A stretch of DNA of 64,000 nt from an uncultured delta proteobacterium (GCA_963824555.1 CAWGPW010000043.1:68763-132762); one strand, 5' to 3'; counted from the first letter of the stretch, positions 19,115 through 40,267 are shown. The notes: generated by a model not told the origin, from the letters alone. Translations and numbers: made by a program.

Positions 19115-19143
19115 AACCTTCCGCCGGCACCGGACACACATAG

Positions 19144-21431: not shown

Positions 21432-21471
21432 GAAACCGACAGTAGGGAATTCAGCAGCACCGGAGAGAGAC

Positions 21472-21825
21472 ATGGCATCCATACCAAACAAGGGGCTTCC
21501 AGGCAGAATCACCCCTCACCCAGGCGAGTTTCTGCGAGAGATGCTCGAGGAACTGGGCGTCTCGCAGACGACTTTTCACCAGCGGACAGGCATGTCCATG
21601 CAGAGGATAAGCGAGATCATCAATGGAAAGCGTGGCGTTACTCCCGAGACCGCTTGGATTCTAGGCGGTGCATTTGGCCAGACGCCGAAGTACTGGCTCA
21701 ATCTTCAGGCAATGCACGATCTCACGAGGACAAGGCCGGTGCGACCGGTCGCTCGTATGCCTGAAGCGCTCAAGGCTGCGGGCTCAGTGTCCATTTCTGC
21801 GGTGCTGCGAACGAGGACGTTCTGA
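21472..21825 (+). CDS. higA: HigA antitoxin (XRE-family HTH)
   Basis: HPGEFLREMLEELGVSQTTFHQRTGMSMQRISEIINGKRGVTPETAWILGGAFGQTPKYWLNLQAMHDL is HigA-type HTH. Sits downstream of higB (toxin-first order). Confidence 0.85.
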   Translation: MASIPNKGLPGRITPHPGEFLREMLEELGVSQTTFHQRTGMSMQRISEIINGKRGVTPETAWILGGAFGQTPKYWLNLQAMHDLTRTRPVRPVARMPEALKAAGSVSISAVLRTRTF

Positions 21826-21850
21826 GCTTCTTGTTCGCAACACAACGGCT

Positions 21851-21975
21851 GTCCGCCGCAAAAACTCGGTACGAAGTCGAACCGACCCGAGTTCTCCCGA
21901 GATCTGTCGGGGGCTCGTCTCGTGGGAGGCATTTTTCCGCGATGCTTGGTGAAATCCTCAAGACCGTGCTGAGCG
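21851..21975. repeat. Copy A of a ~125-bp dispersed repeat (coding potential on both strands)
   Basis: GCCGCAAAAACTCGGTACGAAGTCGAACCGACCCGAGTT...CGCGATGCTTGGTGAAATCCTCAAGACCGTGCTGAGCG, about 85% identical to 22716..22838. Confidence 0.6.
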
Positions 21976-22165
21976 AGTTGCCGATCGAGACCATGAGAAT
22001 CCGCGCTTCTTGATCCGCGACTGTGATTCCATGGTGGCCAAGCCATCCTCACTTTGCGCGCCCTGGAGCAAAGCAACCCGTGATGTCCGAAAACCCGTCG
22101 CCGAGGCTCATGCGGCCTTGCGGGAGTAGTAGTTCAGCACGCTCAACGATTTGCCGAGGCAGTGC

Positions 22166-22402
22166 CTAGCGAGTGATCGGTCTTCTTGCCTGATGGTAGA
22201 TACGGACGATTCGAAGAATGTCATCTTCGCGCTGGTAGTAGATTCGATATGGAGAGACAGGCCAGCTCCTTACGATTGCACCGGAACGAAGCCGACGTTG
22301 CGGGCCTTCGAAGTCAGCCTCAGCCAGACGATGTACGAGTTCAGCAATGCTGCCATGCAGGTGCGCTGCAGCAGCCGGATTGCGGCCACGAAGAAACTCC
22401 AA
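22166..22402 (-). CDS. ParE/RelE-family toxin (N-terminus possibly extended via non-ATG start)
   Basis: SPYRIYYQREDDILRIVRIYHQARRP is a ParE-like C-terminal signature. Confidence 0.55.
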   Translation of the reverse strand: MEFLRGRNPAAAAHLHGSIAELVHRLAEADFEGPQRRLRSGAIVRSWPVSPYRIYYQREDDILRIVRIYHQARRPITR

Positions 22403-22446
22403 GGCCCCGAGAAGATTCTACTCGGCCTCCGGAGCAAAGACGACCT

Positions 22447-22662
22447 TCAACGACGCAGGCTTTCTTCGATGCGATGAAATACGGCGCTCGCATCGACCCC
22501 TCGCCCCTGGCGCAGAGATTCGAGGGCCACTTCCAACCCCGCTTCCTCATCAGGTGATAGATCGGGCGCGGCATCGACGGCATCGACGACATAGCGCCTC
22601 TCCGGGAGGGAGCGCAATTCCTGGGGGACATCTCTGCCGTTCCAGTGGAGCACGACGGACAT
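22447..22662 (-). CDS. Putative antitoxin partner of ParE-like toxin (addiction-module component-like). Start uncertain.
   Basis: LSPDEEAGLEVALESL...VDASAVFHRIEESL resembles the LSPEER...L..SL addiction-module antitoxin motif. Lies immediately upstream of the toxin on the same strand. Confidence 0.35.
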   Translation of the reverse strand: MSVVLHWNGRDVPQELRSLPERRYVVDAVDAAPDLSPDEEAGLEVALESLRQGRGVDASAVFHRIEESLRR

Positions 22663-22715
22663 GCAAGGAATGATACCGCACCCATGGTTGGGGGCGCCAG
22701 GCAGGTCATCAACTT

Positions 22716-22838
22716 GTGTGCCGCAGAAACTCGGTACCAGGTCCGACCGACCTCGGGTTTTGCCTGGATTCATCGCCTGATCCGCTTCTGCTAGCCTTTG
22801 CGTCGCGATGCTCATCGAAATCCTCAAGTCCGCGCTGG
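22716..22838. repeat. Copy B of the ~125-bp dispersed repeat
   Basis: GCCGCAGAAACTCGGTACCAGGTCCGACCGACCTCGGGTT...CGCGATGCTCATCGAAATCCTCAAGTCCGCGCTGGGCG. Confidence 0.6.
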
Positions 22839-23126
22839 GCGCACTGCGTTCTCACTTCCGCTCCCGCGCCGCTGCCGCAAGTCGCGGAAATCGCCAACCC
22901 CATCCAGTCGCTCATGCCGCTGCGGGGGACGCTGGCGGCCCTCGACCACATCCAGCGTGTATGCAGCGGTGCGCAAGTCGCCCACCAGCTCCGCTTGGTC
23001 GGCCATCCATTGGTACAGTGGGCTGCCAAGCCAGTTCCGCACGGTCGTCGCCGCACGGTGACCTCGGACGGCTGGCTGAGACCTCTTATCGGATCAGACC
23101 GAGAGCAAGCGGCGATGGCACCGATC

Positions 23127-26075: not shown

Positions 26076-26404
26076 AGTCGCATTGGACCCGCGATCGGGC
26101 CCAATCGCAATGGTTTGATGACAGACAGCTTGAGCAAGCCGGCCGCTTGCTAGTGTGCGACGGTAGCCTCGCCCACGGGGGCACCGGGCGGATCTGACTG
26201 GTGGGAAACGGAACGACAAGGACGTCTCCGAAGCGGTAGGGCATGGTGCCGACCTTCAGACGTCGTTGTAAACGCCGTCCTCGGGATTGTCCCAGACCTT
26301 GGCGAAGGCAGGCGAGATTCGCAATCACGCACGAGGGCGAGAACCCGGCCACGGACGTCCCCAAGGGATCGCGGCAACAAAATAGGCTTGACACCCGAAG
26401 ATTC

Positions 26405-26420
26405 TGTGAATATATTCACA
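26405..26420. promoter_or_regulatory. Rex operator (perfect palindrome TGTGAATATATTCACA) overlapping the rex start region
   Basis: Matches Rex consensus TTGTGAA-N4-TTCACAA. 16-bp perfect inverted repeat located 6 nt upstream of the rex GTG. Confidence 0.7.
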
Positions 26421-26425
26421 ACATC

Positions 26426-27109
26426 GTGAGCGAACCGGCCGTAACTCCAGAAGCCATCCCCCAGGCTGGGGAAGCAAGCAGGAAAACCGAGCGCCATGTC
26501 TCGGTTTCCACGGTGGAGCGGCTGTCCGTCTACCGCAAGCTCCTGGAAGAGCTGCACTACGACGGCGTAGAATACGTCTACTCGCAGCAATTGGCCGAAA
26601 TGGTCGGGGTGACGCCGGCTCAGCTGCGTCGCGACCTGGCCAGCTTCGGCTCGTTCGGCAACATCAGCCGCGGCTACAACGTCTACCAGCTCACCCGCAC
26701 CATCAGCCACATCTTGGGCACCGATTCGCCCCAAACCGTGGCTTTGTTCGGGGCCGGCGATTTGGGCCGTTCGCTGCTCGCCTACCGCGGCTTCGAGGAG
26801 CGTGGTTTCCACATCGGCCTGATCTTCGATCTGGACGCCGAGAAGGCGGGCAAGGTCTTCGCCGGCCGTCGCTGCTACGCCGTCGAGGACATGGAGAAGG
26901 TCCTGCCCGAGCTCGACGTCCGCATCGCGGTCCTGGCTTGTCGGCCCCCCGGTCTGCAGCAGCTCGTGGACCGGCTGGCCAAGCTTGGAATCTTGTCCAT
27001 TCTCAACTTCGTTCCAAAGCGCGTCACCCCCGCACCAGGAGGCTACGTCGAGAGCATCGACATCGCTGCCAAGCTCGAAAAGCTCTCGTTCCTTAGCCAG
27101 AAGAAGTAG
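26426..27109 (+). CDS. rex: Redox-sensing transcriptional repressor Rex (GTG start inferred)
   Basis: N-terminal winged helix (ERLSVYRKLLEEL, QQLAEMVGVTPAQLRRDL) and Rossmann NAD(H) site (VALFGAGDLGRSLL). Confidence 0.85.
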   Translation: MSEPAVTPEAIPQAGEASRKTERHVSVSTVERLSVYRKLLEELHYDGVEYVYSQQLAEMVGVTPAQLRRDLASFGSFGNISRGYNVYQLTRTISHILGTDSPQTVALFGAGDLGRSLLAYRGFEERGFHIGLIFDLDAEKAGKVFAGRRCYAVEDMEKVLPELDVRIAVLACRPPGLQQLVDRLAKLGILSILNFVPKRVTPAPGGYVESIDIAAKLEKLSFLSQKK

Positions 27110-27159
27110 GTCGGGATGGGCAAGATGTGTACCAAAGGAACGCCACCCCCATGTTAAAA

Positions 27160-27181
27160 CTGTGAAACATTTCACTGTGAA
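27160..27181. promoter_or_regulatory. Rex-like operator(s) upstream of the hydrogenase/regulator operon
   Basis: CTGTGAAACATTTCACTGTGAAC: half-sites TGTGAA-N4-TTCACt plus an overlapping TTCAC-TG-TGAA, about 65 nt upstream of the receiver gene. Confidence 0.55.
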
Positions 27182-27244
27182 CTGGATAACCGATAAGCGT
27201 CTGTTCCGCAATGCACAGTAGGCCCAGGACCAAGGAGAAAAGCC

Positions 27245-27664
27245 ATGAAGAAGCGCGTTTTGCTCGTCGACGATGACAAAGATCTCGTGGGGTCGCTCAA
27301 GGTCGTTCTCGAAGCCAACGGCTTCGAGGTCGCGACCGCCCACAACGGAAGCGACGGGCTGGCGCAGGTGGCCGCGCAGCGTCCCGACGCCATCGTTCTC
27401 GATGTCATGATGGACACCGACACCGAGGGGTTTGGCGTGGCTTACAAGCTGGAAGGCGATCCCGCCACGCGCCGCATTCCCATCGTGCTTCTGACGGGCT
27501 TCATGGACCACATGAAGGAAAAGCGCGAGTCCTTCGACTTCATCACCGGGCGCGATTGGCCGGCGGCGAAGTTGATGAAGAAGCCCGTCGTCGCCGCCGA
27601 GCTCGTGGCCGCCCTTCGCCAGCTTCTTGCCGAGGCGGAAGCCGTCGCCAGCGCGGTTGCCTAG
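27245..27664 (+). CDS. Stand-alone response-regulator receiver (CheY-like) protein
   Basis: 139 aa REC only (LLVDDD...AIVLDVMMD...KKP). No output domain. Confidence 0.8.
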   Translation: MKKRVLLVDDDKDLVGSLKVVLEANGFEVATAHNGSDGLAQVAAQRPDAIVLDVMMDTDTEGFGVAYKLEGDPATRRIPIVLLTGFMDHMKEKRESFDFITGRDWPAAKLMKKPVVAAELVAALRQLLAEAEAVASAVA

Positions 27665-27719
27665 TTCCCTCACCTATTCATCACCAAGCAGCAGCATCGC
27701 AGCACCCGAGGTAAGTCGT

Positions 27720-28202
27720 ATGTGTCAGGTCGATCAGATCATCGCGGGCCATGAGGAGCTTGGCAAAGAGCACCTCATCCCGCTTCTGCAGGAGATTCAG
27801 GCCAAGGAAGGCTACCTATCCCAGGCCGCCATGAACAAGGTGGCGGACGCCACTGGCGTTCCGCAGAGCCGTGTGTTCGGCGTTGCGACCTTCTACAACC
27901 AGTTCCGCTTTGCCCCCAAAGGCGCGCACGTCATCGAGGTGTGCCGGGGCACGGCCTGCCACGTGAAGCAGAGCTTGAAGCTGGCCCAGCACCTGACACG
28001 CAAGCTGAATCTCAAGCCGAACGGCAACTCGCCGGACGACAAGTTCACCGTCATCACGGTGGCTTGCCTCGGGGCGTGCTCCATCGCGCCGGTCATCAAG
28101 CTGGATGGCGAGTTCTACGGCCATCTCGACGTGGAAAAACTCGACCACCTGCTCGACGAGGCCGCGCAAGAGTGCAAAGGGGACAGCCATGCGGTCAAGT
28201 AA
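27720..28202 (+). CDS. NuoE-like [2Fe-2S] thioredoxin-fold subunit of NADH-dependent [FeFe]-hydrogenase (HydC/HndA-like)
   Basis: CRGTACHVKQ...VACLGACSIAPV [2Fe-2S] Cys pattern of the NuoE/HoxE family. Confidence 0.8.
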   Translation: MCQVDQIIAGHEELGKEHLIPLLQEIQAKEGYLSQAAMNKVADATGVPQSRVFGVATFYNQFRFAPKGAHVIEVCRGTACHVKQSLKLAQHLTRKLNLKPNGNSPDDKFTVITVACLGACSIAPVIKLDGEFYGHLDVEKLDHLLDEAAQECKGDSHAVK

Positions 28203-30201
28203 TCTGATTGCGGCGTGCTGCGAGCGCTGCACCCACCGGCCGGGCAACCCGTGTCGCGATTTGATCCGCTGCTTGGCCGAGGGGCCGATCTGTCACAGCG
28301 ACGATGCCTGCGCGAAGATGCGGCAAGAGCGCCTGGCGAATGCTCGGCGAGGCGGGCAGGGGACGCTCATCTTCGTCGGCGCCGGTACCTGCGGACGCGC
28401 CAACGGATCCACCAAGGTCATCGCCAGGATCGGTGCGTTCTTGGAAGAGCACAAGATCGCGGCGGAGCTCGTCGAGGTCGGATGCGTCGGCTACTGCCAG
28501 CGCGAGCTCTTCGTCGACATTCAGAAGCCAGGCGAGCCCAGGCTGGCCTACGCGGACATCAATCTGGGCAACGTCGATCAGTTGCTCGAAGCCGTGCTCC
28601 TGCGCCATGAAATGCGCAACGGCTTCCTCTACGGCCGGCATGGCGATGGCGGTCCGGCCTGGGCCGACGTTCCGGAAATCAACACCACTGATTTCTTCAA
28701 GAAGCAGGTGAAGGTGGTGCTGCGCAACTCGGGCATCATCGACCCGAGCACTCTCGATGCGGCGCTGGCGGCTGGAGCCTTCAAAGCCGCAGCCAAGGCG
28801 GTTTGCACCATGACGCCGGAGGAAGTCTGCAACGAAGTGTTGGCCGCCGGCCTGCGCGGACGCGGCGGTGCGGGTTTCCCGACCGGGCAAAAATGGAACA
28901 TCGCCCGCCAGACCCCGCGCGCGCAGAAGTACCTCATCTGCAACGCGGACGAGGGCGATCCCGGCGCCTTCATGGATCGCGCCGTGCTCGAAAGCGATCC
29001 CTTCTTCGTCATCGAGGGCATGCTCATCGCCGCCTACGCCATCGGCGCCAGCAAGGGCTACATCTACTGCCGGGCCGAGTACCCCTTGGCCGTCGAGCGT
29101 TTGACATCTGCCATCGCCCAATGCCGGCGCGTGGGCCTGCTCGGCAACAATATCCTCGGCAGCCTGTTTTCGTTCGACATCACCATCAAGCAGGGCGCCG
29201 GCGCCTTCGTGTGCGGCGAAGAAACCGCCATCCTGGCCAGCATCGAAGGTGGGCGCGGCATGCCCAGGCCGAGGCCGCCGTATCCCGCCGTCAGCGGCCT
29301 TTTCTGTAAGCCCACGGTGCTCAACAACGTCGAAACCCTGGCCAATGTGCCGGTCATCATCAATCGCGGCGCCGAGTACTTTCAGAATCTCGGGTTGGGC
29401 AAGGCGGCGGGCACCAAGGTGTTCGCGCTCTCCGGCGCCATCCGCAACACTGGCCTCGTGGAGGTTCCCGTCGGCATCAAGCTGCGTACCATCATCGAAG
29501 AGATCGGCGGCGGCGCGCTGCCGGGCCACAGGTTCAAGGCGGTGCAAATCGGCGGTCCGTCGGGCGGCTGCATTCCGGAGCAGCACCTCGACACGGTGAC
29601 CGACTACGCGGCCCTCATCGAGCTCGGCGCCATGATGGGGTCGGGCGGCATGGTGGTGATGGACGAACGCACCTGCATGGTCGACGTCGCTCGCTACTTC
29701 ATGGAGTTCATCCGCAACGAATCCTGCGGCAAGTGCACCCCGTGCCGCGAAGGCACCACGCGCATGCTGGAGATTCTGACCTCCATCACCGAGCGTCCGG
29801 TGGGCGACGAGGAACGGCGCCTGGAGCGTTTCCGCGGCGTGCTTCACCTGCAAGAGCTCGCCAGCACGGTCAAGGAAGCCTCGCTGTGCGGGCTCGGTCA
29901 ATCGGCGGGCAACCCGGTGCTGTCCACGCTGCGCTTCTTCCGTGACGAATACGAACGTCACGTCATCGACCAGCGCTGCCCCTCGGGCGAGTGCCAGGGG
30001 CTGGCCGTGTACGAGGTCGACAATGCCACCTGCATCGGGTGCCTTCTGTGCAAGAAGGCTTGCCCAAGCAACGCCATCGTCGGCGAACGCAAGCAGGCCC
30101 ACTACATCCTGGTCGACAAGTGCGTCGGCTGCGGCACCTGCGTCACCGCGTGTCCCAAGCATTCCATTCACCTTGTTAGCGAAGAGAGGGCCTGCGTATG
30201 A
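28189..30201 (+). CDS. NuoF-like NADH-binding FMN/FeS subunit (HydB/HndC-like) with N-terminal 2Fe-2S domain and C-terminal 2x[4Fe-4S]
   Basis: GLRGRGGAGFPTGQKW (FMN/NADH site). SCGKCTPCREG. C-terminal CIGCLLCKKACP...CVGCGTCVTACP. Overlaps neighbours (ATGA at both ends). Confidence 0.85.
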   Translation: MRSSNLIAACCERCTHRPGNPCRDLIRCLAEGPICHSDDACAKMRQERLANARRGGQGTLIFVGAGTCGRANGSTKVIARIGAFLEEHKIAAELVEVGCVGYCQRELFVDIQKPGEPRLAYADINLGNVDQLLEAVLLRHEMRNGFLYGRHGDGGPAWADVPEINTTDFFKKQVKVVLRNSGIIDPSTLDAALAAGAFKAAAKAVCTMTPEEVCNEVLAAGLRGRGGAGFPTGQKWNIARQTPRAQKYLICNADEGDPGAFMDRAVLESDPFFVIEGMLIAAYAIGASKGYIYCRAEYPLAVERLTSAIAQCRRVGLLGNNILGSLFSFDITIKQGAGAFVCGEETAILASIEGGRGMPRPRPPYPAVSGLFCKPTVLNNVETLANVPVIINRGAEYFQNLGLGKAAGTKVFALSGAIRNTGLVEVPVGIKLRTIIEEIGGGALPGHRFKAVQIGGPSGGCIPEQHLDTVTDYAALIELGAMMGSGGMVVMDERTCMVDVARYFMEFIRNESCGKCTPCREGTTRMLEILTSITERPVGDEERRLERFRGVLHLQELASTVKEASLCGLGQSAGNPVLSTLRFFRDEYERHVIDQRCPSGECQGLAVYEVDNATCIGCLLCKKACPSNAIVGERKQAHYILVDKCVGCGTCVTACPKHSIHLVSEERACV

Positions 30202-31919
30202 GCCTCGTCAACTCACTGTCCATAGACGGAAGAGAAGTTCAATTCACCTCCGGCGAGACGGTGCTCTCGGCGGCCTTGCGCGCGGGGATCGAGATCCCGC
30301 ACCTGTGCTCGATGGATTGGGCCTGCAAGCCCGAGGCGGCCTGTCGCGTCTGTTTGGTCGAGCTCGAAGGCGTGCCGCGCCTGCAGACGAGCTGCACCCT
30401 CGAGGCCAAAGACGGCCAGAAGGTGCGCACCCGCTCGCCGCGCGTGCAGGCCGTGCGCCGCAACATCGTCGAGCTACTCATCGCCAACCACCCGGGCGAC
30501 TGCCTGACGTGCGCGCGCAACCAGAACTGCGAGCTGGCCCAGGTAGCCAGCGAGCTCGGCGTGCGCGAGCGACGCTACCGCGGTCTCAAGAAGAACCACC
30601 CCCTCGATCTGTCCTCGCCGGCTCTCGTGCGCGATCCCAACAAGTGCATCCTGTGCGGACGTTGCGTGGCCGTGTGCCACCAGGTGCAGGGCGTGGGCGC
30701 CATCGACTTCATCGACCGCGGCTTCAAGACGCGCGTCGGGCCTGGCTTCCACGACGGCATCAACGTGTCGAATTGCATCTTCTGCGGTCAGTGCACGCGG
30801 GTGTGCCCGACTGCGGCCCTGATGGAGAAGAGCCAAGTCGACGCCGTGGTGGCGGCGCTGGCGGACCCCAACGCTATCGTCGTCGCGCAGGTCGCCCCGG
30901 CGGTCCCGGCCACGCTGATGGAGAATGCGCAGTCGAGCTCGGTGCGCACCATGCTGCTGCGACTGGCGGCGGCGCTCAAGCGCGTCGGCTTCGACGCCGT
31001 GTTCGACACCGGCTTCGCCGCCGACCTGACCATCATGGAGGAGGTCTCCGAGCTGATTCGGCGGGTGCAGACGGGCGGTCCCCTGCCTATGTTCACCAGC
31101 TGCTCGCCTGGCTGGATCCAATACGTCGAGAAGTACCGGCCCGACCTCATTCCGCACCTGTCCACCTGCAAGTCGCCGCAGCAGATGGCGGGAGCGCTGA
31201 TCAAGGACGTGTACCCCAAGCACCGCGATCTGGGTGGCAAGCGACTGGTGTGCGTGTCGCTCATGCCGTGCACGGCGAAGAAGGTCGAAGCCAGCGAGCT
31301 TGGCGACGTCGACTTCGTCCTGACCACGCGCGAGATCGATGAGCTACTGGTCCGCTTCGGCATCGATCTCGACAAGGTCACCGAGCTTGGCTCCCTCGAT
31401 GCGCCCTTCTCCTCGGCCAGCGGCGCGGGACGACTCTTCGGCGGCACGGGTGGTGTCATGGAGGCGGCCATTCGCACCGCGCACAAGATGCTTACGGGCA
31501 GCGAGCTCAAGGGCGGCTTCAAGGTCGAGGAGGCGCGTGGGCTCGAAGGCATCAAGTGCTTCTCGCTCGACGTGGGCGGGACCACGCTCAACTTCGGCAT
31601 CGTCAACGGCCTCGGGCGTCTCAAGCCCATTCTCGATCCGCTCGCCAAAGGCGTGTCCAATCTGCACTTCATCGAGGTCATGACCTGCCCCGGCGGTTGC
31701 ATCGGCGGCGGTGGCCAGCCCTACGACTCGGATCCCGAAGTCATTCGCGTCCGGCTCGAACGCCTCTACGACGCTGACCGGCGCTCGACCCTCAAGACCT
31801 CGCACGACAATGACGAGGTTCAAGAGCTCTACGCCGAGATGCTTGGAAAACCCTTGGGCGAGCTGAGCCACCACCTGCTTCATCGCAGCTACATCGATCG
31901 GCGAGCAGAGGAGAGATAG
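30198..31919 (+). CDS. hydA: [FeFe]-hydrogenase catalytic subunit (HydA/HndD-like) with variant L1 motif TSCSPGW
   Basis: N-terminal 2Fe-2S + 4Fe-4S domains. H-cluster motifs L1 FTSCSPGW, L2 MPCTAKKVE, L3 EVMTCPGGCIGGGGQP. Confidence 0.85.
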   Translation: MSLVNSLSIDGREVQFTSGETVLSAALRAGIEIPHLCSMDWACKPEAACRVCLVELEGVPRLQTSCTLEAKDGQKVRTRSPRVQAVRRNIVELLIANHPGDCLTCARNQNCELAQVASELGVRERRYRGLKKNHPLDLSSPALVRDPNKCILCGRCVAVCHQVQGVGAIDFIDRGFKTRVGPGFHDGINVSNCIFCGQCTRVCPTAALMEKSQVDAVVAALADPNAIVVAQVAPAVPATLMENAQSSSVRTMLLRLAAALKRVGFDAVFDTGFAADLTIMEEVSELIRRVQTGGPLPMFTSCSPGWIQYVEKYRPDLIPHLSTCKSPQQMAGALIKDVYPKHRDLGGKRLVCVSLMPCTAKKVEASELGDVDFVLTTREIDELLVRFGIDLDKVTELGSLDAPFSSASGAGRLFGGTGGVMEAAIRTAHKMLTGSELKGGFKVEEARGLEGIKCFSLDVGGTTLNFGIVNGLGRLKPILDPLAKGVSNLHFIEVMTCPGGCIGGGGQPYDSDPEVIRVRLERLYDADRRSTLKTSHDNDEVQELYAEMLGKPLGELSHHLLHRSYIDRRAEER

Positions 31920-31930
31920 AGTATTCAGCC

Positions 31931-33956
31931 ATGGGCGTGATTCAGACCATCCTGCAGAATTGCCGCCGCTGCTACTCGTGCGTGCGCGAGTGCCCGGCCA
32001 AGGCGATCAAGATCGTCGACGGCCAGGCGTCGGTGGTCAAAGAGCGCTGCATCGCCTGCGGCAACTGCACGGTGGTCTGTTCGCAAAACGCCAAGGCCTA
32101 TGCCAGCGGCATCGAGCGGGTTTGCCAGCTTCTGGCTGGCGGCGGTCCGGTGGTGGCCATGGTGGCGCCGTCCTTTCCCGCGGATGACTGCGGCCAGGAT
32201 CCGGGGCGTCTCGTCGGGGCGTTGCGCGCACTCGGCTTTTCCCACGTGGTCGAGGTCGCCTACGGGGCGGATCTCACCAACAAGGCCTACCGCGCGTACA
32301 TCAAGGAGCACCCCACGGGCACGCGCCTGGCCACGGCGTGCCCGGCGCTGGTCGAGTACGTGCGCAAATACGCGCCCCATCTGGTGGACTGCCTGATTCC
32401 CATCGTGTCGCCCATGATCGCGACGGCGATGGCGGTCAAGGCGCTCTATGACCAGTCGCACGCCTGCGTCTTCATCGGGCCGTGTGTCGCCAAGAAGCTG
32501 GAGATGCAAGATCCCAACGTGCCGGCCGTCGTCGATGGCGTGCTGACCTTCGACGAGCTGAGGCGACTCTTCGCCGAGCGCGGGGTGCAGGTCGGCGACG
32601 CCACATCGGGCGAGTTCGATCCGCCGCATGCCGGTTCCGGGCGGCTCTATCCCCTGGTTGGTGGTTTGCTCAAGGGTGCCGGTCTCGAGCGCAGCTCGCT
32701 CAACGCCGAGGTCATGGTGCTATCGGGCGCGCCCGAGATTCTCGATGTCCTGGCCGACCTGCGCCCAGACGACCCGCAGCCGCTCTTCATCGAACCGCTC
32801 ATGTGCCGTGGTTGTTACAGCGGTCCCGCCACGCACGGGGACAAGCGGCGCCCGCAGCGTAAGCGGCGCGTGGCCGACTACGTGAAGTCGCGCATGGACG
32901 AGACTGCCGAGGCGTCGATGGAATTGCCTGCGCTCGATCTCGGACGCACCTTTACGGTCGACGATCAACGCCTGAAAGAGCCGAGCGAGCAGGAAATCAG
33001 GGTCATTCTCGCTCGCACCAACAAGTTCGCCACCGAGGACGAGCTCAACTGTGGGGCGTGCGGCTACGAATCCTGCCGTGCCAAGGCCGTGGCCGTGTAC
33101 CGCGGGCTGGCCGAAGAGGCCATGTGCCTACCCTTCATGATCGAGCAGGCCGAGCGCGTGTGTCACGAGCTGAACGTCCCCTGGCCCAACCTCAAGGACA
33201 TCCACCGCCACCTCATCAACACCGAGAAGCTGGCCTCCATGGGGCAGATGGCGGCCGGTGTGGCGCACGAGCTGAACAACCCCCTCGGCACCATCCTGCT
33301 CTATACCAACCTGCTTGCGCGCAAGCTCAAGGACCGGCCCGAGCTCGATCATGATTTGAAACTGCTCGTCGACGAGTCCAACCGCTGCAAGAAAATCATC
33401 GGCAACCTGCTCGACTTCGCCCGGCAGAACCGGGTGCAACTGGAACGCACGAATGTGGCCGAGCTTTTTCAGCGCGTGGTCGAGGATTCGCTCTTCACCT
33501 TGCGCGACACGGGATCCGCCTTGCGCATCACCTGCGAAGCACCGCCCGATCTGCACGTCGATCTCGACAAAGATCAGATCGGCCAGGTGCTCATCAACCT
33601 GGTCAAGAACGGCATCGAGGCCATGGAAGGCAAAGAGGGCACGGTGCGCCTGGTGGCCGTCGACGAGCCGGCGACCGGACGCGTGCGCATGGCGGTCAGC
33701 GACGAGGGCCGGGGCATCGCGCCGGAGGCCCGCGACAAGGTCTTCCAACCGTTCTTCACCACCAAGAGCCTCGGTCGAGGCACCGGGCTCGGCCTGCCCA
33801 TCGCCTACGGCATCGTCAAGATGCACGGCGGACGGATTCTGGTTCGATTCGGATCCCGTGTGCGGAACCACGTTCACCCTGGAATTGCCCAAAACCCAGT
33901 CGCTGCGAAGGAGTCACCTGTATGGCGAAGAGCCCCAAGATTCTGTTTGTCGATGA
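31931..33956 (+). CDS. Sensory [FeFe]-hydrogenase-like (HydS-type H-cluster domain) fused to histidine kinase. Contains a +1 frameshift at ~33836-33840.
   Basis: 2x[4Fe-4S] ferredoxin N-term. H-cluster-like motifs ATACPALV / IGPCVAKKLE / EPLMCRGCYSGP. Cx2Cx4Cx16C motif (CGACGYESC...16...C). HisKA H-box GVAHELNNPLGTI. HATPase (GRGTGLGLPIAYGIVKMHGG), then the frame changes. The downstream frame gives WFDSDPVCGTTFTLELP. Confidence 0.7.
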
Positions 33957-34344
33957 CGACCGAGATTTTCTTGCCGCGCAGACCGCTTTTTTCGGTGGGC
34001 GTGGCTACGAGGTCGTCACCCTCGACCGCGTGGAAGGCGCCCTGGAACGCATCAGTCAGGAGCGGCCCGATGTCATCGTGCTCGACCTCATGATGGAGCA
34101 CTACGATTCGGGCTTCATGCTCGGGCGGCGCATCCGGCAAGACCCGGCCATGCTCGAGGTTCCCATCCTCATGCTGTCGGGCGTGGCGGCGGCGACGGGA
34201 CACAAGTTCGCCGCCGAGGCCGCGGCGCTCAAGGATTGGATCAAGCTCGACGCCTTTCTGGACAAGCCGGTGACCGGCCGCCAGCTGCTCAAGGTCGTCG
34301 AGGAAAAGCTCGGGGCACGAGGCGCGGCTACGGCCACGGGATAA
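33922..34344 (+). CDS. Stand-alone response-regulator receiver protein (paralog of 27245..27664)
   Basis: 141 aa REC only (ILFVDDD...VIVLDLMMEH...DKP). Confidence 0.8.
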   Translation: MAKSPKILFVDDDRDFLAAQTAFFGGRGYEVVTLDRVEGALERISQERPDVIVLDLMMEHYDSGFMLGRRIRQDPAMLEVPILMLSGVAAATGHKFAAEAAALKDWIKLDAFLDKPVTGRQLLKVVEEKLGARGAATATG

Positions 34345-34346
34345 CC

Positions 34347-35805
34347 GTGCCCAGCATCCTGGTCATCGACGACGAATACGGCGTTCGCTCGGGGATTCGC
34401 CAGATCCTCGAGCTGGAAGGCTACGCCGTGGAGGTCGCAGCGACCGGGCGCGAGGCCCTGGAGCTTCTCGACCAGCGACCGTTCGACATCGCGCTCATCG
34501 ACTACCAACTGCCCGATCTCGATGGGCTGACCCTGCTGGCATCCATGCGCAGCCGCAAGCTCGCCACCATGACCTGCATGATCACGGCCTACGCCAACAT
34601 CGATACCGCCATCGCCGCCACCCGGCAGGGTATCGATTTCTTCCTGCCCAAGCCGTTCTCGCCCGACGATCTTCTCGGCGTCATCGAGACGTTGTCGCGC
34701 CATAAGCAGCTCAAAGAGGAAGCGGAGAAGCTGCGCAAGGAGAACGAGGCCAACCTGCTTGCCCTGGCCACCGAGAAAAGCCAAACCAGCTCGCTGGTGG
34801 CGTCCCTGCGCGACGCCGTCCTGGTCATCAATCGCGAGCGCGAGGTGGTGCTGGTCAACCACGCCATGTCCGCCTTGCTCGGCCGCGCGCCCAACAATTT
34901 GGTGCGCGCGCCTGTCGACGAGGTGCTCGGGGCTGCGCCCTTGTCCGGGCTGGCCGACTTGCTTTCCGCCCAGGGCGATGAGGAACGCAAGCTCGCCGAG
35001 CTCACCATCGGCGACCGCATCTTCTTCGCCAGCGTGGTCGCCTTTCATGGCGAGCAAGGGGAAGCTCTCGGTCGCATCCTGACCCTGGCCGACGTGACCG
35101 ACGTGCGCCGCATGGCCATGGAAAAGCCGCGTTTCATTCGCACCATGGTGCATGAATTCCGCTCTCCCCTCGGCGCCATCCGCAGTCTCATCGAGGTGGC
35201 CACCGAAAAGAGCCTGGGCGCCGACCTTGCGCCGTACTTGCCCTTTCTCGAACGTGCGGACAAGCGCATCGACAAGATGGTCGAGCTGATCGGCGAGCTG
35301 CTCTCGCTCTCGCGCATCGATCTGGAGCGGACCACAAATGTCGCGGAGCCCCCAGCGGACGTCTCGGTGGCTGTGGCCGCGACCCTGGATCTGTACCGGG
35401 AAAAACTCGTCGAGCGCAGGATCACTGCCAGCGTGGATGCCGCTCCCGACCTGCCGCGCGCGCGCATCGGCGACGAGGATTCTGAGGACCATCCTTTCCA
35501 ACCTGGTGGGCAATGCCATCAAATACGGTCGGGACGATGGTTCTTTGCGCCTGCGCGTGGTCCAGCACGAAGGCAAGCTCCACATCGAGGTCGCGGATTC
35601 AGGGATCGGCATCCGTGCCGAGAATCTGCCCCAAGTGTTCCAGGAGTTCTTTCGCGAGAAGCGCTCCGAGACGCGTGACATCGACGGCAACGGACTTGGG
35701 CTGGCCATCGTCAAGCGTCTGGTCGAGCGGGTGGGAGGCCAGATCGAGGTCGAAAGCACCCTCGGCGTGGGCTCGCTCTTTCGCGTGATTCTTTGCCCCG
35801 CCTAA
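34347..35805 (+). CDS. Hybrid receiver-PAS-histidine kinase. GTG start. Contains a +1 frameshift at ~35478-35484.
   Basis: N-terminal REC (ILVIDDE...IALIDYQLPDLDG). PAS-like middle. H-box MVHEFRSPLGAIRS. The HATPase block (ILSNLVGNAIKYG...GNGLGLAIVKRLVE) lies in the +1 frame (ORF 35338..35805). Confidence 0.7.
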
Positions 35806-35905
35806 ACCTCGGCGGCCAAGTTGGCGATACATCGCATGCAATCTTGCGACGGCGGCGTCGTTGCGATAGACGCTGGTCGCACTCTCCATCGCCTCCCGTG
35901 CACCC

Positions 35906-38377
35906 ATGACTCAAACGACTCCCGAGACCTCTGGCCCCGATCTGGCCGCGCTGCGCGACTTGCTGGCGAGCTGGCCGGATCTCAAGCCGCGCAACCTGAT
36001 CGCCGTCTTGCAACGCACGCAGGAAGCCTACGGCTACCTGCCCATGGAGGCGCTGGACGCCATCGCCGACAGCATGCACATCGCCGAGGCGCGGGTGTAC
36101 GGCGTGGCCACCTTCTACTCGCAGTTTCGCCTGAAACCGCAGGGCGAGCACGTCATCCAGGTGTGCAACGGCACCGCCTGCAACGTGAAGGGATCGGAAG
36201 ATCTGCTGGGCGAGCTGGTGGCGGTGCTGGGCATCCACCCCGGCGACACCACCCCCGACGGCAAGGTGACGCTTGAAAAGGTGAATTGCGTGGGCGCCTG
36301 CGGCGTGGCGCCGGCCATCGTCGTCGACGGCGAGGTGCACGGCCGTGTGACCCCCAAGTTGGTCGGGCGATTGGCGCGCAAGCTCCTCACCGCGCCGAAG
36401 CCAGTGGTCCTCTCGCGCAAATCCGCGGCCGAGAAGGTCCGCGGGCGCACCTTTCTCGAGCGCTGCTGCGACAAGTGCCAGAACCGTCCCGGCACGCCGT
36501 GCCCGAACTTTCTGCTTTGTCGCATGGAAGGCGTTTCCTGCCACGACGACGAACAGTGCGGGAAGTTCCGTGAGGAATTGCGCCAACTGGCCGAGCACAA
36601 CGCGCCCCAGTACGCGGCCACGGCCTTTCTGTGCAAGGGCCTGACCTGCGACGCCAGCGACGAGCCGGGGGTGTACAAGACCTTCCTTTCAGAACTGAAG
36701 AAACGCGGACTGACGGGCAAGGTCAATTTCATCGAGACCGGCTGCCAGGGACTGTGCGAGGTGGGCCCAATCGTGCAGCTCAAGCCTCTCGAAGCCTTCT
36801 ACTGCCGCGTGAAGGCCGCCGATGTGGCCGAGATCGTCGAGAAACACATCCTCGGCGGTCAGATCGTCGAGCGCCTGCTCTACGCCCCCGGCCACGTGAC
36901 GGAAGCCTCGATTCCGTTCTACAGCAAGCAAGTCCGCCGCGTGCTTTCCAACACCGGTAAGATCGATCCCGAGAACATCGACGAATACATCGCCCGCGAG
37001 GGGTACAAGGCGCTCTACAAAGCGCTCAAGGAAATGACGCCCGAGCAGGTCATCGCCGACGTGACTGCGGCGGGCTTGCGTGGCCGTGGCGGCGGTGGGT
37101 TCCCCACGGGCAAGAAATGGGAGATTGCGCGAGCCCAGGCCGACAGCACCCGCTACATCGTGTGCAACGCCGACGAGGGCGACCCGGGCGCGTTCATGGA
37201 TCGCAGCCTTCTCGAAGGCGATCCGCACCGCGTGCTCGAAGGCATCCTCATCGCGGCCTACGCCATCGGTGCCGAGCAAGCCTTCATCTACTGCCGGGCC
37301 GAGTATCCGCTGGCTATCCGCCGCCTGGAAATCGCCATGGCCCAGGCGCGGCTGTACGGATTGATCGGTCCCAATATTCTTGGGACCGGCAAGAGCCTGC
37401 ACGTGGAGATCGTGCAAGGCGCGGGCGCCTTCGTGTGCGGCGAGGAGACCGCCATGCTCTCCAGCATCGAGGGCAAGCGCGGCATGGCCCGCAACAAGCC
37501 GCCCTATCCGGCCCAGCACGGTTTCGCCGGACATCCGACCTGCGTGAACAACGTGGAAACCTTCGCCAATGTGCCGCTGATTCTGGCCAAGGGCGTGGCG
37601 TGGTTTCGCAGCGTGGGGACGGAGAAGAACGCCGGTACCAAGATTTTCTCGCTGTCGGGCAAGATCAAGAACACCGGTCTCGTCGAGGTGCCCATGGGCA
37701 TCACCCTGCGCGAGCTGCTGCACGACATCGGCGGCGGCGCGCCCGAGGGTTCGACCATCAAGGGCGCGCAGACCGGCGGTCCGTCGGGCGGGTGCATCCC
37801 GGCCGATCGCATGGATGTCACCGTCGACTACGAAAGCCTGAGGCGGCTGGGCGGGATGATGGGCTCGGGCGGCTTGGTGGTCACCGATTCGGGCACCTGC
37901 ATGGTGAGCTTCGCCAAGTTCTTCCTGGGGTTCACCCAGCACGAATCGTGCGGCAAGTGCATCCCGTGCCGCGAAGGCACCAAGCGCATGCTCGAGATCC
38001 TGGAACGGATCACGGATGGCAAGGGCAAGATGGAGGACATCACCGAGCTGCGCCACCTGGCGCTCGTCATCTCGCGTACCTCGGCCTGCGGACTCGGGGC
38101 CTCGGCGCCGAGCCCCGTGGTGTCGACCCTGCGCTACTTCGAGCACGAGTACGTGTCGCACATCAAGGACACGCGCTGCCTGGCCGGCGTGTGCCGCTCG
38201 CTGCTCACCTACCACATCCTGGCCAACTGCCGCGGTTGCGGCCTGTGCGCGCGCGGCTGTCCCGTCCAGTGCATCAGCGGCGACAAGGGCGAGATGTACG
38301 TCATCGACAACGCCCGCTGTATCAAGTGCGGCGAGTGCAACCGGGTATGTCCCTTCGGCGCCGTGGCGCGCACCTAG
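35906..38377 (+). CDS. NuoE-NuoF fusion subunit of a second NADH-dependent/bifurcating-type [FeFe]-hydrogenase
   Basis: 823 aa. N-terminal NuoE-like 2Fe-2S (CNGTACNVKG...VGACGVAPA). Extra Cys-rich linker. NuoF core (GLRGRGGGGFPTGKKW, SCGKCIPCREG). C-terminal 2x[4Fe-4S]. Confidence 0.85.
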   Translation: MTQTTPETSGPDLAALRDLLASWPDLKPRNLIAVLQRTQEAYGYLPMEALDAIADSMHIAEARVYGVATFYSQFRLKPQGEHVIQVCNGTACNVKGSEDLLGELVAVLGIHPGDTTPDGKVTLEKVNCVGACGVAPAIVVDGEVHGRVTPKLVGRLARKLLTAPKPVVLSRKSAAEKVRGRTFLERCCDKCQNRPGTPCPNFLLCRMEGVSCHDDEQCGKFREELRQLAEHNAPQYAATAFLCKGLTCDASDEPGVYKTFLSELKKRGLTGKVNFIETGCQGLCEVGPIVQLKPLEAFYCRVKAADVAEIVEKHILGGQIVERLLYAPGHVTEASIPFYSKQVRRVLSNTGKIDPENIDEYIAREGYKALYKALKEMTPEQVIADVTAAGLRGRGGGGFPTGKKWEIARAQADSTRYIVCNADEGDPGAFMDRSLLEGDPHRVLEGILIAAYAIGAEQAFIYCRAEYPLAIRRLEIAMAQARLYGLIGPNILGTGKSLHVEIVQGAGAFVCGEETAMLSSIEGKRGMARNKPPYPAQHGFAGHPTCVNNVETFANVPLILAKGVAWFRSVGTEKNAGTKIFSLSGKIKNTGLVEVPMGITLRELLHDIGGGAPEGSTIKGAQTGGPSGGCIPADRMDVTVDYESLRRLGGMMGSGGLVVTDSGTCMVSFAKFFLGFTQHESCGKCIPCREGTKRMLEILERITDGKGKMEDITELRHLALVISRTSACGLGASAPSPVVSTLRYFEHEYVSHIKDTRCLAGVCRSLLTYHILANCRGCGLCARGCPVQCISGDKGEMYVIDNARCIKCGECNRVCPFGAVART

Positions 38378-38394
38378 AGGAACGGAGACTTGCC

Positions 38395-40137
38395 ATGAGC
38401 GACGTCAATCTGATCATCAACGACCTGCCGGTGAGCGTTCCCGCCGGCTCGACGATTCTCGAAGCCGCGCAGGCGCTGAGCATCCGCATTCCTACCCTGT
38501 GCTACGACAAGCAGCTCACGGTGTCGGGCGCCTGCCGCCTGTGCGTGGTAGAGGTGGCCAATCCCACGGGCTCCACGCGGCTCGAGCCGTCATGCTCGTT
38601 TCCAGTGCAAGAAGGTATGCGGGTGCGGACCAACACGCGCGAGCTGCGCGATGCCCGCCGCACCATCATCGAGCTGATCCTGGCCAACCATCCGCGCGCT
38701 TGCCAGACCTGCATTCGCAACCAGCGCTGCAGTCTGCAGGATGCCTGTCGTGAATACGGCATCGACAAGATCCGCTACGAGGGCGAAAAGCGGCATCACG
38801 CCGTCGATGCTTCGTCGGTGGCCATCACGCGCCACCCGGACTACTGCATCCTGTGCGGTAAGTGCGTGAAAGTCTGCAAGGAAGTGCAGGGCGTGTACGC
38901 ACTGGATTTCGTCAACCGCGGCTTTTCGACCACGGTGCTGCCGCCCTTCGATCGCGACCTCGCCGACACGGTCTGCGTGTTGTGTGGGCAGTGCTTGCTC
39001 AAGTGTCCGGTCGCAGCCATCCGCGACAAGAGCTACATCAAGACGGTTGCCGATGCGCTGGAAGATCCGGACAAGATCGTCACCGTTCAAATCGCACCCT
39101 CGGTGCGGGCCACCGTTGGCGAGCTCTTCGGCCTTCCCCCGGGCGTGTCGTTGACCCGCAAACTGCCGACCGCGCTTCGCCGCGTCGGTTTCAAGTACAT
39201 CTTCGATACCGATTTCGGCGCCGACATGGCGGTCATGGAGGAAGGCCACGAGCTCGTGGCGCGCTTGCAGAAAGGCGGGCCGTATCCGCTCATCACCAGT
39301 TGCTCCCCGGGCTGGGTGAAGTTCATGGAGCACTTCTTCCCCGAGCTCATTCCGAACACGTCTTCGGTCAAGTCGCCGCAGCAGATTCTCGGCGTGCTGA
39401 CCAAGACGTTCTTCGCCGAGCGCAATGGCATTGACCGCAAGAAGCTCTTCAACGTCTCGATCATGCCGTGCTCGGCCAAGAAGTTCGAGATCCAGCGCCC
39501 CGAACACCGTCTGGACGACGGCACCCCCGAGGTGGACGCCGTCCTGACCACGCGCGAGCTCGGCGACTTGCTCAAGATGCACGACATCGACCTCCCGTCG
39601 CTGCCCGAGTCGGCCTTCGACCCCATCCTGGGCGAAACCACGGGCGCCGGTCTGATCTTCGGCGTGACCGGCGGTATGATGGAGGCCGCGCTGCGCACGG
39701 TGGCCGCGGTGATGGACCCCCATACCGAGCCGCGCATGGAGTACTCGGTCTTGCGCGGAACCGGGGGCATCAAGCGCGGCTCGGTGCTGATCGGCGAGCG
39801 CGAGATTAGGCTTTGCGCCGTGCACGGGCTGGCCAACGCGCGCAAAATCCTCGATGACCTTCGTGCGGGCCGCGAGGAAATCCACTTCCTGGAAGTCATG
39901 GCCTGTCCCGGCGGCTGCATCGGCGGCGGTGGTCAGCCCTTGCCCACCGACGAGGAAACCCGCCGCAGGCGCATCGAGGCCATGTACGCCGAGGATCGCG
40001 GCATGCCCATTCGGCAATCGCACAAGAACCCGGCCGTTCGCACGGTGTACGACGAGTTCCTGGGCGAGCCCTGCGGCGAGAAGGCGCACCACCTTCTGCA
40101 CACGCACTACGCCGCCCGCTCGCCACGCGGGTTCTAA
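38395..40137 (+). CDS. hydA: [FeFe]-hydrogenase catalytic subunit, second copy, also with L1 = TSCSPGW
   Basis: Good RBS (AGGAACGGAGAC). Motifs ITSCSPGW, IMPCSAKKFE, EVMACPGGCIGGGGQP. The last 257 bp are duplicated at 42173..42429. Confidence 0.85.
   Translation: MSDVNLIINDLPVSVPAGSTILEAAQALSIRIPTLCYDKQLTVSGACRLCVVEVANPTGSTRLEPSCSFPVQEGMRVRTNTRELRDARRTIIELILANHPRACQTCIRNQRCSLQDACREYGIDKIRYEGEKRHHAVDASSVAITRHPDYCILCGKCVKVCKEVQGVYALDFVNRGFSTTVLPPFDRDLADTVCVLCGQCLLKCPVAAIRDKSYIKTVADALEDPDKIVTVQIAPSVRATVGELFGLPPGVSLTRKLPTALRRVGFKYIFDTDFGADMAVMEEGHELVARLQKGGPYPLITSCSPGWVKFMEHFFPELIPNTSSVKSPQQILGVLTKTFFAERNGIDRKKLFNVSIMPCSAKKFEIQRPEHRLDDGTPEVDAVLTTRELGDLLKMHDIDLPSLPESAFDPILGETTGAGLIFGVTGGMMEAALRTVAAVMDPHTEPRMEYSVLRGTGGIKRGSVLIGEREIRLCAVHGLANARKILDDLRAGREEIHFLEVMACPGGCIGGGGQPLPTDEETRRRRIEAMYAEDRGMPIRQSHKNPAVRTVYDEFLGEPCGEKAHHLLHTHYAARSPRGF
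39881..40137 (+). repeat. Direct repeat copy 1 (native 3' end of hydA2, 257 bp)
   Basis: About 99% identical to 42173..42429. Differences: CAGCCC vs CAGCTC, stop TAA vs TAG. Confidence 0.8.
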
Positions 40138-40157: not shown

Positions 40158-40267
40158 TGCAGGCATTCTTCTCGGCGCGCTCGCCGGCGGTTTTGCTGCG
40201 GCGATAATCGATGACTCCCTCCTGGCACTCGAGCCCATCCGCAAGGAGCCGTTCGTCAGTGTCGTCT

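Follow-up and report, generated by a model that had tools for sequence, protein, structure and literature searches.

Organization of the locus

The locus described here lies at 26.4–40.1 kb on the plus strand of a 64,000-nt stretch of DNA from an uncultured delta proteobacterium. The whole stretch is referred to as the window. The locus combines a gene for the redox-sensing repressor Rex with genes for two catalytic [FeFe]-hydrogenases and for a putative sensory [FeFe]-hydrogenase that is fused to a histidine kinase (HydS::HK). Open reading frames (ORFs) of the window were listed and scanned with Pfam and NCBIfam. Ten genes were found in plus orientation, namely rex, REC1, hydC, hydB, hydA1, hydS::HK, REC2, the gene of a hybrid kinase (REC-PAS-HK), a fused hydC-hydB, and hydA2. 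An initial annotation of this DNA had counted eleven genes; the domains it named and their order on the plus strand were all recovered with Pfam and NCBIfam. The genes are indeed tightly packed and frequently overlap, as that annotation had noted: with refined boundaries, neighbouring genes overlap by 14, 4, and 35 nt, and the gaps range from 2 to 135 nt. The base composition of the locus equals that of the remainder of the window.

HydS::HK is a sensory-type hydrogenase linked to a transmitter

The gene hydS::HK (31931–33956, plus strand) codes for a protein of 674 residues after the removal of one T at 33837/33838, which is discussed below. According to Pfam, the protein consists of an N-terminal Fer4 dicluster, Fe_hyd_lg_C, an Fe-S motif (PF04060), HisKA, and HATPase_c. 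None of the NCBIfam models covers this fusion; among them, the transmitter is closest to AtoS/ZraS-type kinases. In an alignment to solved hydrogenases including CpI, the sequences ATACP, GPCVAKKLE, and EPLMCRGC of HydS::HK correspond to the motifs TSCCP, MPCxxKxxE, and ExMxCxxGC, and the four Cys ligands of the H-cluster are kept. The claim of a HydS-like sensory hydrogenase fused to a histidine kinase is thus borne out: all H-cluster ligands are present, as are HisKA and HATPase_c, and the loss of these ligands, which would have refuted the claim, is not observed.

A set of 126 homologues was used to assess conservation. The H-cluster ligands C137, C185, C292, and C295 are invariant, as are K188 and E191 (the equivalents of K358 and E361), the eight N-terminal ferredoxin Cys residues (8/8), the Cys residues of the C-terminal motif C374-x2-C377-x4-C382-x16-C399 (4/4), and the H-box residue His446. 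The APS motif, which contacts the [2Fe] subcluster in CpI, is invariant or nearly so. The position of the proton-relay residue C299 (position 136) is occupied by Ala in HydS::HK and never by Cys in the homologues (107 Ala, 10 Ser, and 8 Thr of 126). The position of M353 (position 183) is a Gly in 126 of the 126 sequences. Furthermore, the E279/E282 region of the proton path is deleted or replaced compared to CpI. A corresponding signature, including the definition of the C-terminal motif, has been described for the putative sensory M2f and M2e enzymes TmHydS and TamHydS (PMC8163306). HydS::HK matches it because the Cys ligands, the replacement of C299 and M353, and the Cx2Cx4Cx16C motif are all shared. 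Judged from these features, HydS::HK is most plausibly a group-C-type sensory [FeFe]-hydrogenase, the placement being made at the level of group C only.

Between C399 and the phospho-accepting His446 lie approximately 47 mainly helical residues. A PAS domain, which follows the C-terminal cluster in the M2f architecture, gave no match in HydS::HK; HisKA-HATPase_c is found in its place. In an AlphaFold2 model of the monomeric orthologue P0001, the H-domain is confident, and the linker and DHp have pLDDT values below 50. The model, being of low confidence in the linker, was used solely to assess the absence of an extra folded domain; it suggests that the C-terminal cluster and the transmitter are connected by short helices only.

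Proteins of this kind are widespread. A search with the full-length kinase gave more than 6,900 significant matches among 8,000 candidates scored, and the sensory module alone gave 909 clusters at 50% identity (E ≤ 1e-30). In 75 representative sensory hydrogenases, HATPase_c, and with it the transmitter architecture of HydS::HK, was found 20 times and PAS about 19 times; seven are fused to a sigma-54 activator domain and two to an MCP domain. The last two types would be one-component H2-responsive regulators and chemoreceptors, respectively.

Rex and its operators

The gene rex (26426–27109, plus strand) codes for 227 residues from the presumed start GTG 26426; no other in-frame start codon lies downstream of the promoter and ahead of the conserved N-terminus of Rex. 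The protein is recognized by PF06971 (61.7 bits, cut-off 27), PF02629 (48.1, cut-off 22.3), and NF003995 (192, cut-off 126), and the Rossmann motif GAGDLG is visible. The gene is preceded by a sigma-70-like promoter (TTGACA-17-TATATT, 26388–26416, plus strand), which agrees with the consensus in 11 of 12 positions. Its −10 hexamer ends about 9 nt ahead of the GTG (26411–26428), and the rex mRNA may be leaderless or nearly so.

Rex operators have a consensus of the TTGTGAANNNNTTCACAA type (PMC6391272). Searching the 64 kb with the pattern TGTGAANNNNTTCACA and at most two mismatches yielded two matches, one before rex and one before REC1. Operator 1 (26404–26421), whose core TGTGAATATATTCACA spans 26405–26420, is a perfect palindrome with 0 mismatches. 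It overlaps the promoter such that its spacer holds the −10 hexamer of rex. Operator 2 (27160–27191), assigned by pattern and conservation, consists of TGTGAAACATTTCACT (27161–27176) and an abutting weaker box, TGTGAACTGGATAACC. At the same threshold, no box was found in front of the second hydrogenase.

Both boxes are conserved in related loci. Box 1 of the relatives reads TGTGAATATAATCACA and contains a perfect TATAAT. A box with at most two mismatches stands just 5' of rex in all 15 related loci in which this region is present, and among 16 related loci from three phyla neither position lacks a box if the region is present. When the rex-REC1 spacers from Myxococcota, Syntrophales, and Thermoleophilia were aligned, a near-invariant TGTGAAnnnnTTCAC-TGTG core became apparent, again abutted by a weaker box. 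It is this phylogenetic footprint, the strongest new evidence, that leads us to predict that Rex autoregulates its own gene and controls the REC1 operon. The identity of Rex and of the two operators proposed initially is thus supported by Pfam and NCBIfam and, strongly, by conservation across phyla.

An eight-gene cassette is conserved in three phyla

The ten proteins of the locus were compared with 33 loci by means of tblastn. The order rex-REC1-hydC-hydB-hydA-hydS::HK-REC2-REC-PAS-HK is conserved as an eight-gene unit. In metagenome-assembled genomes (MAGs) labelled Myxococcales or delta proteobacterium, the kinase is 77–97% identical to that of the window; in MAGs of Syntrophales and in those of Thermoleophilia, it is 57–59% identical. 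The closest relative, L001, shows 92% nucleotide identity over positions 26366–35798 of the window; at 35798, synteny stops and the second hydrogenase is absent. The latter follows directly 3' of the cassette only in L003, L004, and L010, and it is 4.5 kb away and unfused in L034. A comparison of the flanks by tblastx gave mostly noise, and only for L003 upstream and L010 downstream could synteny with the window be shown.

The conserved unit is the eight-gene cassette, and the second hydrogenase is a variable add-on. The initial picture of a circuit placed between two hydrogenase operons has to be revised in this respect. With an identity of about 60% and full synteny including the operators in three phyla, a horizontal spread of the cassette seems likely. 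Its occurrence in a presumed myxobacterium had been considered unusual; it is present in at least ten loci from Myxococcota-labelled MAGs, and a report from 2021 describes HydABC in anaerobic members of the Myxococcota (bioRxiv 10.1101/2021.07.06.451402).

The two catalytic hydrogenases

The first enzyme is encoded by hydC (27720–28202; 160 residues; PF01257 with E = 1e-45 and the NuoE family of NCBIfam), hydB (28189–30201; 670 residues), and hydA1 (30198–31919; 573 residues; PF02906, PF02256, TIGR02512), all on the plus strand. HydC is a NuoE-like [2Fe-2S] subunit, and HydB is a NuoF-like flavoprotein with a CCxxC prefix, an N-terminal [2Fe-2S], and a C-terminal 2x[4Fe-4S]. The second enzyme is encoded on the same strand by the fused hydC-hydB (NuoE-NuoF; 35906–38377; 823 residues; PF01257, PF01512, PF10589, Fer4) and by hydA2 (38395–40137, from ATG 38395; 580 residues; PF02906 with E = 4e-86, NF040763).

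Among solved structures, HydA1 is matched best by the bifurcating HydA1 of T. kivui (8a6t_A, E = 1e-166), and it scores 430 with TIGR02512 (cut-off 406), which HydA2 passes as well. HydA2 is additionally recognized by NF040763, "NADH-dependent [FeFe] hydrogenase, group A6" (791, cut-off 765). The catalytic-subunit motifs L1–L3 (TSCSP, MPCTAKK..E, and EVMTCPGGCIGGGGQP) and the N-terminal Fe-S domains are present. Both HydA proteins read TSCSP and not TSCCP (31080–31094 and 39298–39312) and thus contain a Ser at the position of the proton-relay Cys, as does HydA1 of A. woodii (7q4v). HydB was aligned to residues 8–596 of the 599-residue HydB of A. woodii (7q4v_B, E = 7e-195), and the HydC-HydB fusion aligns to solved HydB chains over their full length. 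For the beta-subunit, criteria that separate bifurcating from non-bifurcating enzymes have been published (A/E232 plus M234, F367, and GGPSG in T. maritima numbering; PMC7311640). All three signatures, as DEGDPGAFM, GAGAFVCGEE, and GGPSG, are found both in HydB and in the fusion, and both end with a Fer4 dicluster. By sequence, both enzymes are HydABC-type (group A3) [FeFe]-hydrogenases with predicted electron-bifurcating flavoprotein subunits. With these signatures in both flavoproteins, the earlier proposal of two paralogous bifurcating-type hydrogenases, one having fused E and F subunits, stands.

The prefix CCxxC...C...C...CH...C occurs in both NuoF-type subunits (28216–28312 and 36464–36560) and comprises seven Cys and two His residues in HydB. 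Compared to the cut-off of 45 for NF040902, the prefix of HydB scores 64 and that of the fusion 44.2, which is just below. No counterpart exists in any solved HydB or NuoF chain. The prefix was found in all HydB orthologues of the cassette and in 650-residue homologues, some of them labelled Desulfitobacteriaceae; in L017 it is duplicated. Fused HydC-HydB homologues of about 820 residues form approximately 20 close clusters. Further fused forms have an identity of 44–49%, and at least one of them is labelled Firmicutes.

Downstream of hydA2, a weak terminator-like hairpin followed by a T-run is located at 40172–40197 (plus strand), which is a consensus match only. As a terminator scan of the region gave 6 sites compared to 9.2 expected from shuffled sequences, its results were not used for the definition of transcription units.

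Reading-frame breaks in the two kinase genes

The initial annotation had taken the kinase genes as whole and had missed two single-T frameshifts. As read, hydS::HK is an ORF of 31931–34093, in which the frame changes after residue 636 owing to a surplus T at 33837/33838; the final 38 residues of the ATP-binding domain are found in the +1 frame, which ends at 33956. The product annotated at 31931–33956 is consequently correct as the restored 674-residue frame and incorrect as an intact ORF, since its end coordinate silently spans the frameshift. The hybrid kinase gene (34347–35805, plus strand; 485 residues from GTG 34347 after the removal of one T at 35480/35481; REC-PAS-HisKA-HATPase_c according to Pfam) is read in two pieces, 34236–35678 and 35338–35805. 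Its break falls between HisKA and the N-box, ahead of the ATP-binding domain. The features of two-component kinases (HisKA, HATPase_c, H446) are present, and both genes need the removal of one base to be read through.

At both breaks, GATC of L001 corresponds to GATTC in the window, and the two sites share the context GGATCTG (33836–33839 and 35479–35482). Removing the T from hydS::HK restores a protein of 674 residues; its identity to P0001 is 97%, and the closest orthologues listed are equally long. In the hybrid kinase, it restores IGDEDLRTILSNLVGNAIKYG, the usual lead-in to the N-box; the orthologues in L004–L010 are continuous. The frames 3' of the breaks have a high GC content at third codon positions (GC3) and are 97% and 90% identical to orthologues at the amino acid level.

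Comparable breaks occur elsewhere in the window. At least five frameshifts of a single base each interrupt the gene for IorA (indolepyruvate:ferredoxin oxidoreductase alpha; 14860–16450, minus strand), and each piece is a good IorA peptide. Frame reconstruction indicates a single inserted T at two of the junctions (GTG-T-TCG and TTC-T-GCC). IorA is fragmented in the relative L003 as well. These breaks point to an indel-prone assembly. Furthermore, the cassette genes of the Flye-style contigs L001, L003, L029, L030, and L034 have their own, different frameshifts, and those of the SPAdes-named contigs L004, L008, and L010 have none. For example, the hybrid kinase of L034, a relative with 65% identity, is also interrupted between HisKA and HATPase_c, but at another site close to a G-run (13440–13520), which is an independent error of the long-read type and no shared feature.

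Errors of the assembly are the most likely cause of both kinase frameshifts, because IorA is broken likewise, long-read relatives are broken differently, the kinase genes are otherwise undecayed, and the orthologues are intact at 674 residues. Two further explanations were rejected. A systematic conversion of GATC to GATTC is ruled out as a general effect, since 43 of 63 GATC sites are unchanged between L001 and the window; that the two insertions have a context in common might reflect a base-calling error related to methylation. Programmed +1 frameshifting at GGAT(T)CTG was dismissed, as all orthologues are single-frame without the extra T and the shifts of the relatives are located elsewhere.

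Receivers and possible output

REC1 (27245–27664, plus strand; 139 residues; PF00072) is a stand-alone receiver whose gene opens the hydrogenase operon. It contains DDD9–11, D53, T84, and K113, and its position as the first gene is kept in all cassette loci. REC2 (33922–34344, plus strand; 140 residues; PF00072) is likewise a stand-alone receiver and 35% identical to REC1. It contains the acceptor Asp55 and K115, and its gene overlaps the corrected end of hydS::HK by 35 nt. All three receivers of the locus retain the acceptor Asp, the Thr/Ser, and the Lys. Searches of the PDB with REC1 and REC2 returned generic receivers only and no informative subfamily.

According to Pfam, none of the ten proteins of the locus contains an Hpt, a DNA-binding, or an enzymatic output domain. 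The term "phosphorelay-like" used in the initial annotation is therefore not apt. In about 18 loci of the cassette type, no NtrC-type or other DNA-binding regulator was found within 10 kb. In the more distant relatives L023, L026, L031, and L032, hydS::HK is followed by an NtrC-type receiver-sigma-54 activator. From this arrangement and from the domain survey of sensory hydrogenases, it appears that the cassette type has replaced a classical regulator by two free receivers and a second kinase. Control of the operons by sigma-54 is not supported. Matches to the promoter TGGCACN5TTGCW are at chance level (31 compared to 31.5 expected), and none is located on the plus strand 5' of either operon. 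At 21189–21204 (minus strand), TGGCACTGGTCTTGCT agrees perfectly with the consensus of sigma-54 promoters; this site has no relation to the hydrogenase locus.

Genomic surroundings

Among approximately 30 further ORFs of the window that were scanned, none has a radical-SAM or HydEFG-like domain, in agreement with the initial statement that the window lacks hydE, hydF, and hydG. A neighbour upstream of the locus carries the myxobacterial cysteine-rich repeat TIGR02232, which fits the presumed myxobacterial source. Compared to L003, where PaaK/IorBA directly precede rex, the window contains about 10 kb of extra DNA (16500–26200), with ORFs that have no Pfam matches and with the gene for a secreted-looking protein of 1030 residues. 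In this protein, a fibro-slime domain occurs together with cysteine-rich repeats of the myxobacterial type (TIGR02232, DUF4215). Positions 143–2452 code for a nitric oxide reductase of the quinol type, a NorB to which a cytochrome c-like domain is fused; its presence in the same window hints at a facultative or nitrogen-oxide-tolerant lifestyle.

A model for the control of hydrogen production

We consider it fairly probable that the region represents a copy of a conserved module for the control of hydrogen production, in which NADH acts via Rex and H2 via HydS::HK. This module was probably spread by horizontal transfer. According to our model, a rise in NADH/NAD+ would release Rex from both operators, such that the operon is transcribed. 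HydABC would then re-oxidize NADH and reduced ferredoxin under formation of H2. HydS::HK would bind H2 at a slow-turnover H-cluster, the accessory clusters would become reduced, and this reduction would shift the autokinase/phosphatase balance of the protein. Phosphoryl groups could subsequently be passed to REC2, which is translationally coupled, and to the receiver of the REC-PAS kinase. The latter may represent a second stage, and REC1 may be a further target or a phosphate sink. It would follow from the release of Rex and from the binding of H2 by HydS::HK that NADH is a feed-forward input and H2 a product-feedback input.

Several points weigh against this interpretation. The second hydrogenase has no Rex box at the mismatch threshold used, maturases HydEFG are not encoded among the scanned ORFs of the window, and both kinases are truncated as read. 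The locus contains no DNA-binding regulator, no Hpt, and no sigma-54 promoter, and thus no recognizable output step of the circuit, and partners among the two kinases and three receivers are assigned from gene order only. Moreover, no experiment ties any [FeFe] group C protein to H2-dependent phosphorylation, catalysis by the group D protein TamHydS was hardly affected by mutation of its C-terminal cluster, and the authors of that study state that their data challenge earlier hypotheses of signal transduction (PMC13104023).

Among the alternatives, it is possible, albeit clearly less probable than the model above, that the output is conventional control of transcription by an unlinked DNA-binding response regulator and that the stand-alone receivers are phosphate sinks or connectors. 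The NtrC-type activators that directly follow the HydS::HK genes in L023, L026, L031, and L032 would agree with this, as would the similarity of the transmitter to AtoS/ZraS-type kinases, which pair with such activators, and the direct fusion of 7 of the 75 representative sensory hydrogenases to a sigma-54 activator domain. However, the approximately 18 cassette-type loci have no such regulator within 10 kb, a sigma-54 promoter is missing 5' of either hydrogenase operon in the window, and the position of REC1 as the first gene of the enzyme operon across three phyla argues for a role of its own. A more radical version of our model is improbable in our view: the H2-sensor kinase would act without a DNA-binding regulator, the phosphorylated single-domain receivers would act on HydABC or Rex directly, H2 as the product and NADH as the substrate would be integrated post-translationally at a single bifurcating enzyme, and controller and enzyme would be mobile between phyla as one unit. 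Such direct action on protein partners is suggested by the fact that REC1 opens the enzyme operon in three phyla and that REC2 is translationally coupled to the kinase.

The two remaining alternatives concern the sensor itself. HydS::HK could report the redox state or O2/CO via its Fe-S clusters instead of H2, its H-cluster site containing a [4Fe-4S] only or serving as a redox relay. The presence of four Cys ligands is in itself no proof of an inserted [2Fe] subcluster, maturase genes were not found among the scanned ORFs, and canonical proton-transfer residues are missing, with an Ala in place of C299 and the E279/E282 region deleted or replaced. In addition, the P1–P3 signature motifs are hardly recoverable in the group C1 proteins of PMC11406978, according to its authors. 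On the other hand, K188, E191, and the APS motif near the [2Fe] subcluster are invariant or nearly so, TmHydS and TamHydS assemble the H-cluster and react with H2 in spite of the same substitutions (PMC8163306, PMC10055695), and hydS::HK is always located beside genes of catalytic hydrogenases. We therefore attribute a low probability to this explanation. We give still less credence to the idea that the T insertions are real, which would make both kinases pseudogenes, render the H2-sensing branch dead, and leave the control of the hydrogenases to Rex alone. As read, HydS::HK indeed lacks the last 38 ATP-binding residues and the REC-PAS kinase its whole HATPase_c domain, and the common change of GATC to GATTC within GGATCTG indicates that the insertions are not randomly scattered. 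However, apart from one inserted base each, the coding sequence of the kinases is fully kept, with high GC3 and the 97% and 90% identity mentioned above. IorA of the same window is likewise interrupted by single-base frameshifts, at least five in number, long-read MAG relatives have different frameshifts of their own in these kinase genes, and 43 of the 63 GATC sites are identical in the relative and the window.

The locus is a good and tractable candidate for biochemical tests of whether [FeFe] proteins sense H2. As of 2026, a role for the C-terminal cluster of groups C and D has been suggested independently and still awaits testing (PMC13104023). Since the H-domain of HydS::HK is joined straight to the transmitter of a histidine kinase, a simple read-out is available, namely autophosphorylation in the presence and absence of H2, which PAS-only proteins do not offer. 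As candidate partners, the cassette furthermore offers its three receivers, the second kinase, and Rex together with the two operators. Because the cassette recurs in Myxococcota from soil and sediment, in Syntrophales, and in Thermoleophilia, any result would bear widely on how H2 production is controlled in fermentation and syntrophy. The locus is genuine and well conserved, belongs to a kind that is already catalogued, and reveals no new principle from the window itself; the analysis is of value for defining the cassette by comparison and for its warning on frameshifts.

Comparison with known systems

HydDB has listed [FeFe] group C1 as "histidine kinase-linked (putative)" since 2016 (PMC5037454), and in 2024 "BfuT" genes of groups C1/C3 that bear a histidine kinase were reported beside A3 hydrogenases in Hydrogenedentota (PMC11406978). 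The initial remark that kinase-linked sensory [FeFe]-hydrogenases are predicted and none is characterized agrees with the literature consulted (PMC5037454, PMC13104023). These proteins and HydS::HK have in common a sensory-type H-domain that is linked to histidine kinase signalling and encoded beside a bifurcating-type operon. The Hydrogenedentota loci L022, L025, and L028 were recovered as relatives with 41–44% identity; a look-up in the supplement, made to place the related contigs in C1 or C3, gave no matches. Compared to the C1 and BfuT systems, the cassette adds rex with conserved operators, two receivers, and the REC-PAS second kinase, and it has no DNA-binding regulator. A description of the cassette as a whole was not met in the literature searched.

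TmHydS of Thermotoga maritima (group C, M2f) and TamHydS of Thermoanaerobacter mathranii (group D, M2e) share with HydS::HK the N-terminal 2x[4Fe-4S], the four Cys ligands, a residue other than Cys at C299, and the replacement of M353, which is a Gly in HydS::HK as in TmHydS (PMC8163306). The C-terminal Cx2Cx4Cx16C motif and the location of the gene beside a trimeric bifurcating hydrogenase are common as well (PMC8163306). The proteins differ in what follows the C-terminal cluster: a PAS domain in TmHydS, no signalling domain in TamHydS, and HisKA-HATPase_c directly in HydS::HK. TmHydS and TamHydS have been characterized by spectroscopy, whereas the HydS::HK of the window is known from its sequence. 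A functional analogue is HoxBC-HoxJ-HoxA ([NiFe] group 2b of HydDB), in which H2 is reported by a hydrogenase of low activity to the histidine kinase in control of hydrogenase genes (PMC5037454). That system has an unrelated metal site and fold, keeps sensor and kinase on separate proteins, and ends in a known DNA-binding regulator. In contrast, sensor and kinase form one polypeptide in HydS::HK, and the cassette encodes no DNA-binding output.

Rex regulons that include [FeFe]-hydrogenase genes are known from Firmicutes and Thermotogae; a TTGTGAANNNNTTCACAA-type operator precedes the hydrogenase genes and rex there, too (PMC6391272, citing Ravcheev 2012). In the cassette, whose operators are predicted, rex is physically part of the presumably mobile unit and joined with a sensor kinase. 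HydABC of A. woodii, T. kivui, and T. maritima (7q4v, 8a6t, 7p5h) resemble both enzymes of the window in the full-length alignment of subunits A and B, in the cofactor domains, and in the signatures of bifurcation. Compared to these structures, both B-type subunits of the window have the additional N-terminal CCxxC prefix, and the second enzyme has fused C and B subunits. A fusion of a gamma (NuoE-like) and a beta (NuoF-like) subunit also forms the beta-subunit of the characterized HydAB from S. aciditrophicus (PMC7311640). That enzyme is non-bifurcating and its beta-subunit has the corresponding residue pattern, whereas the 823-residue fusion of the window combines the bifurcating pattern with the CCxxC prefix, a [2Fe-2S], and a C-terminal 2x[4Fe-4S].

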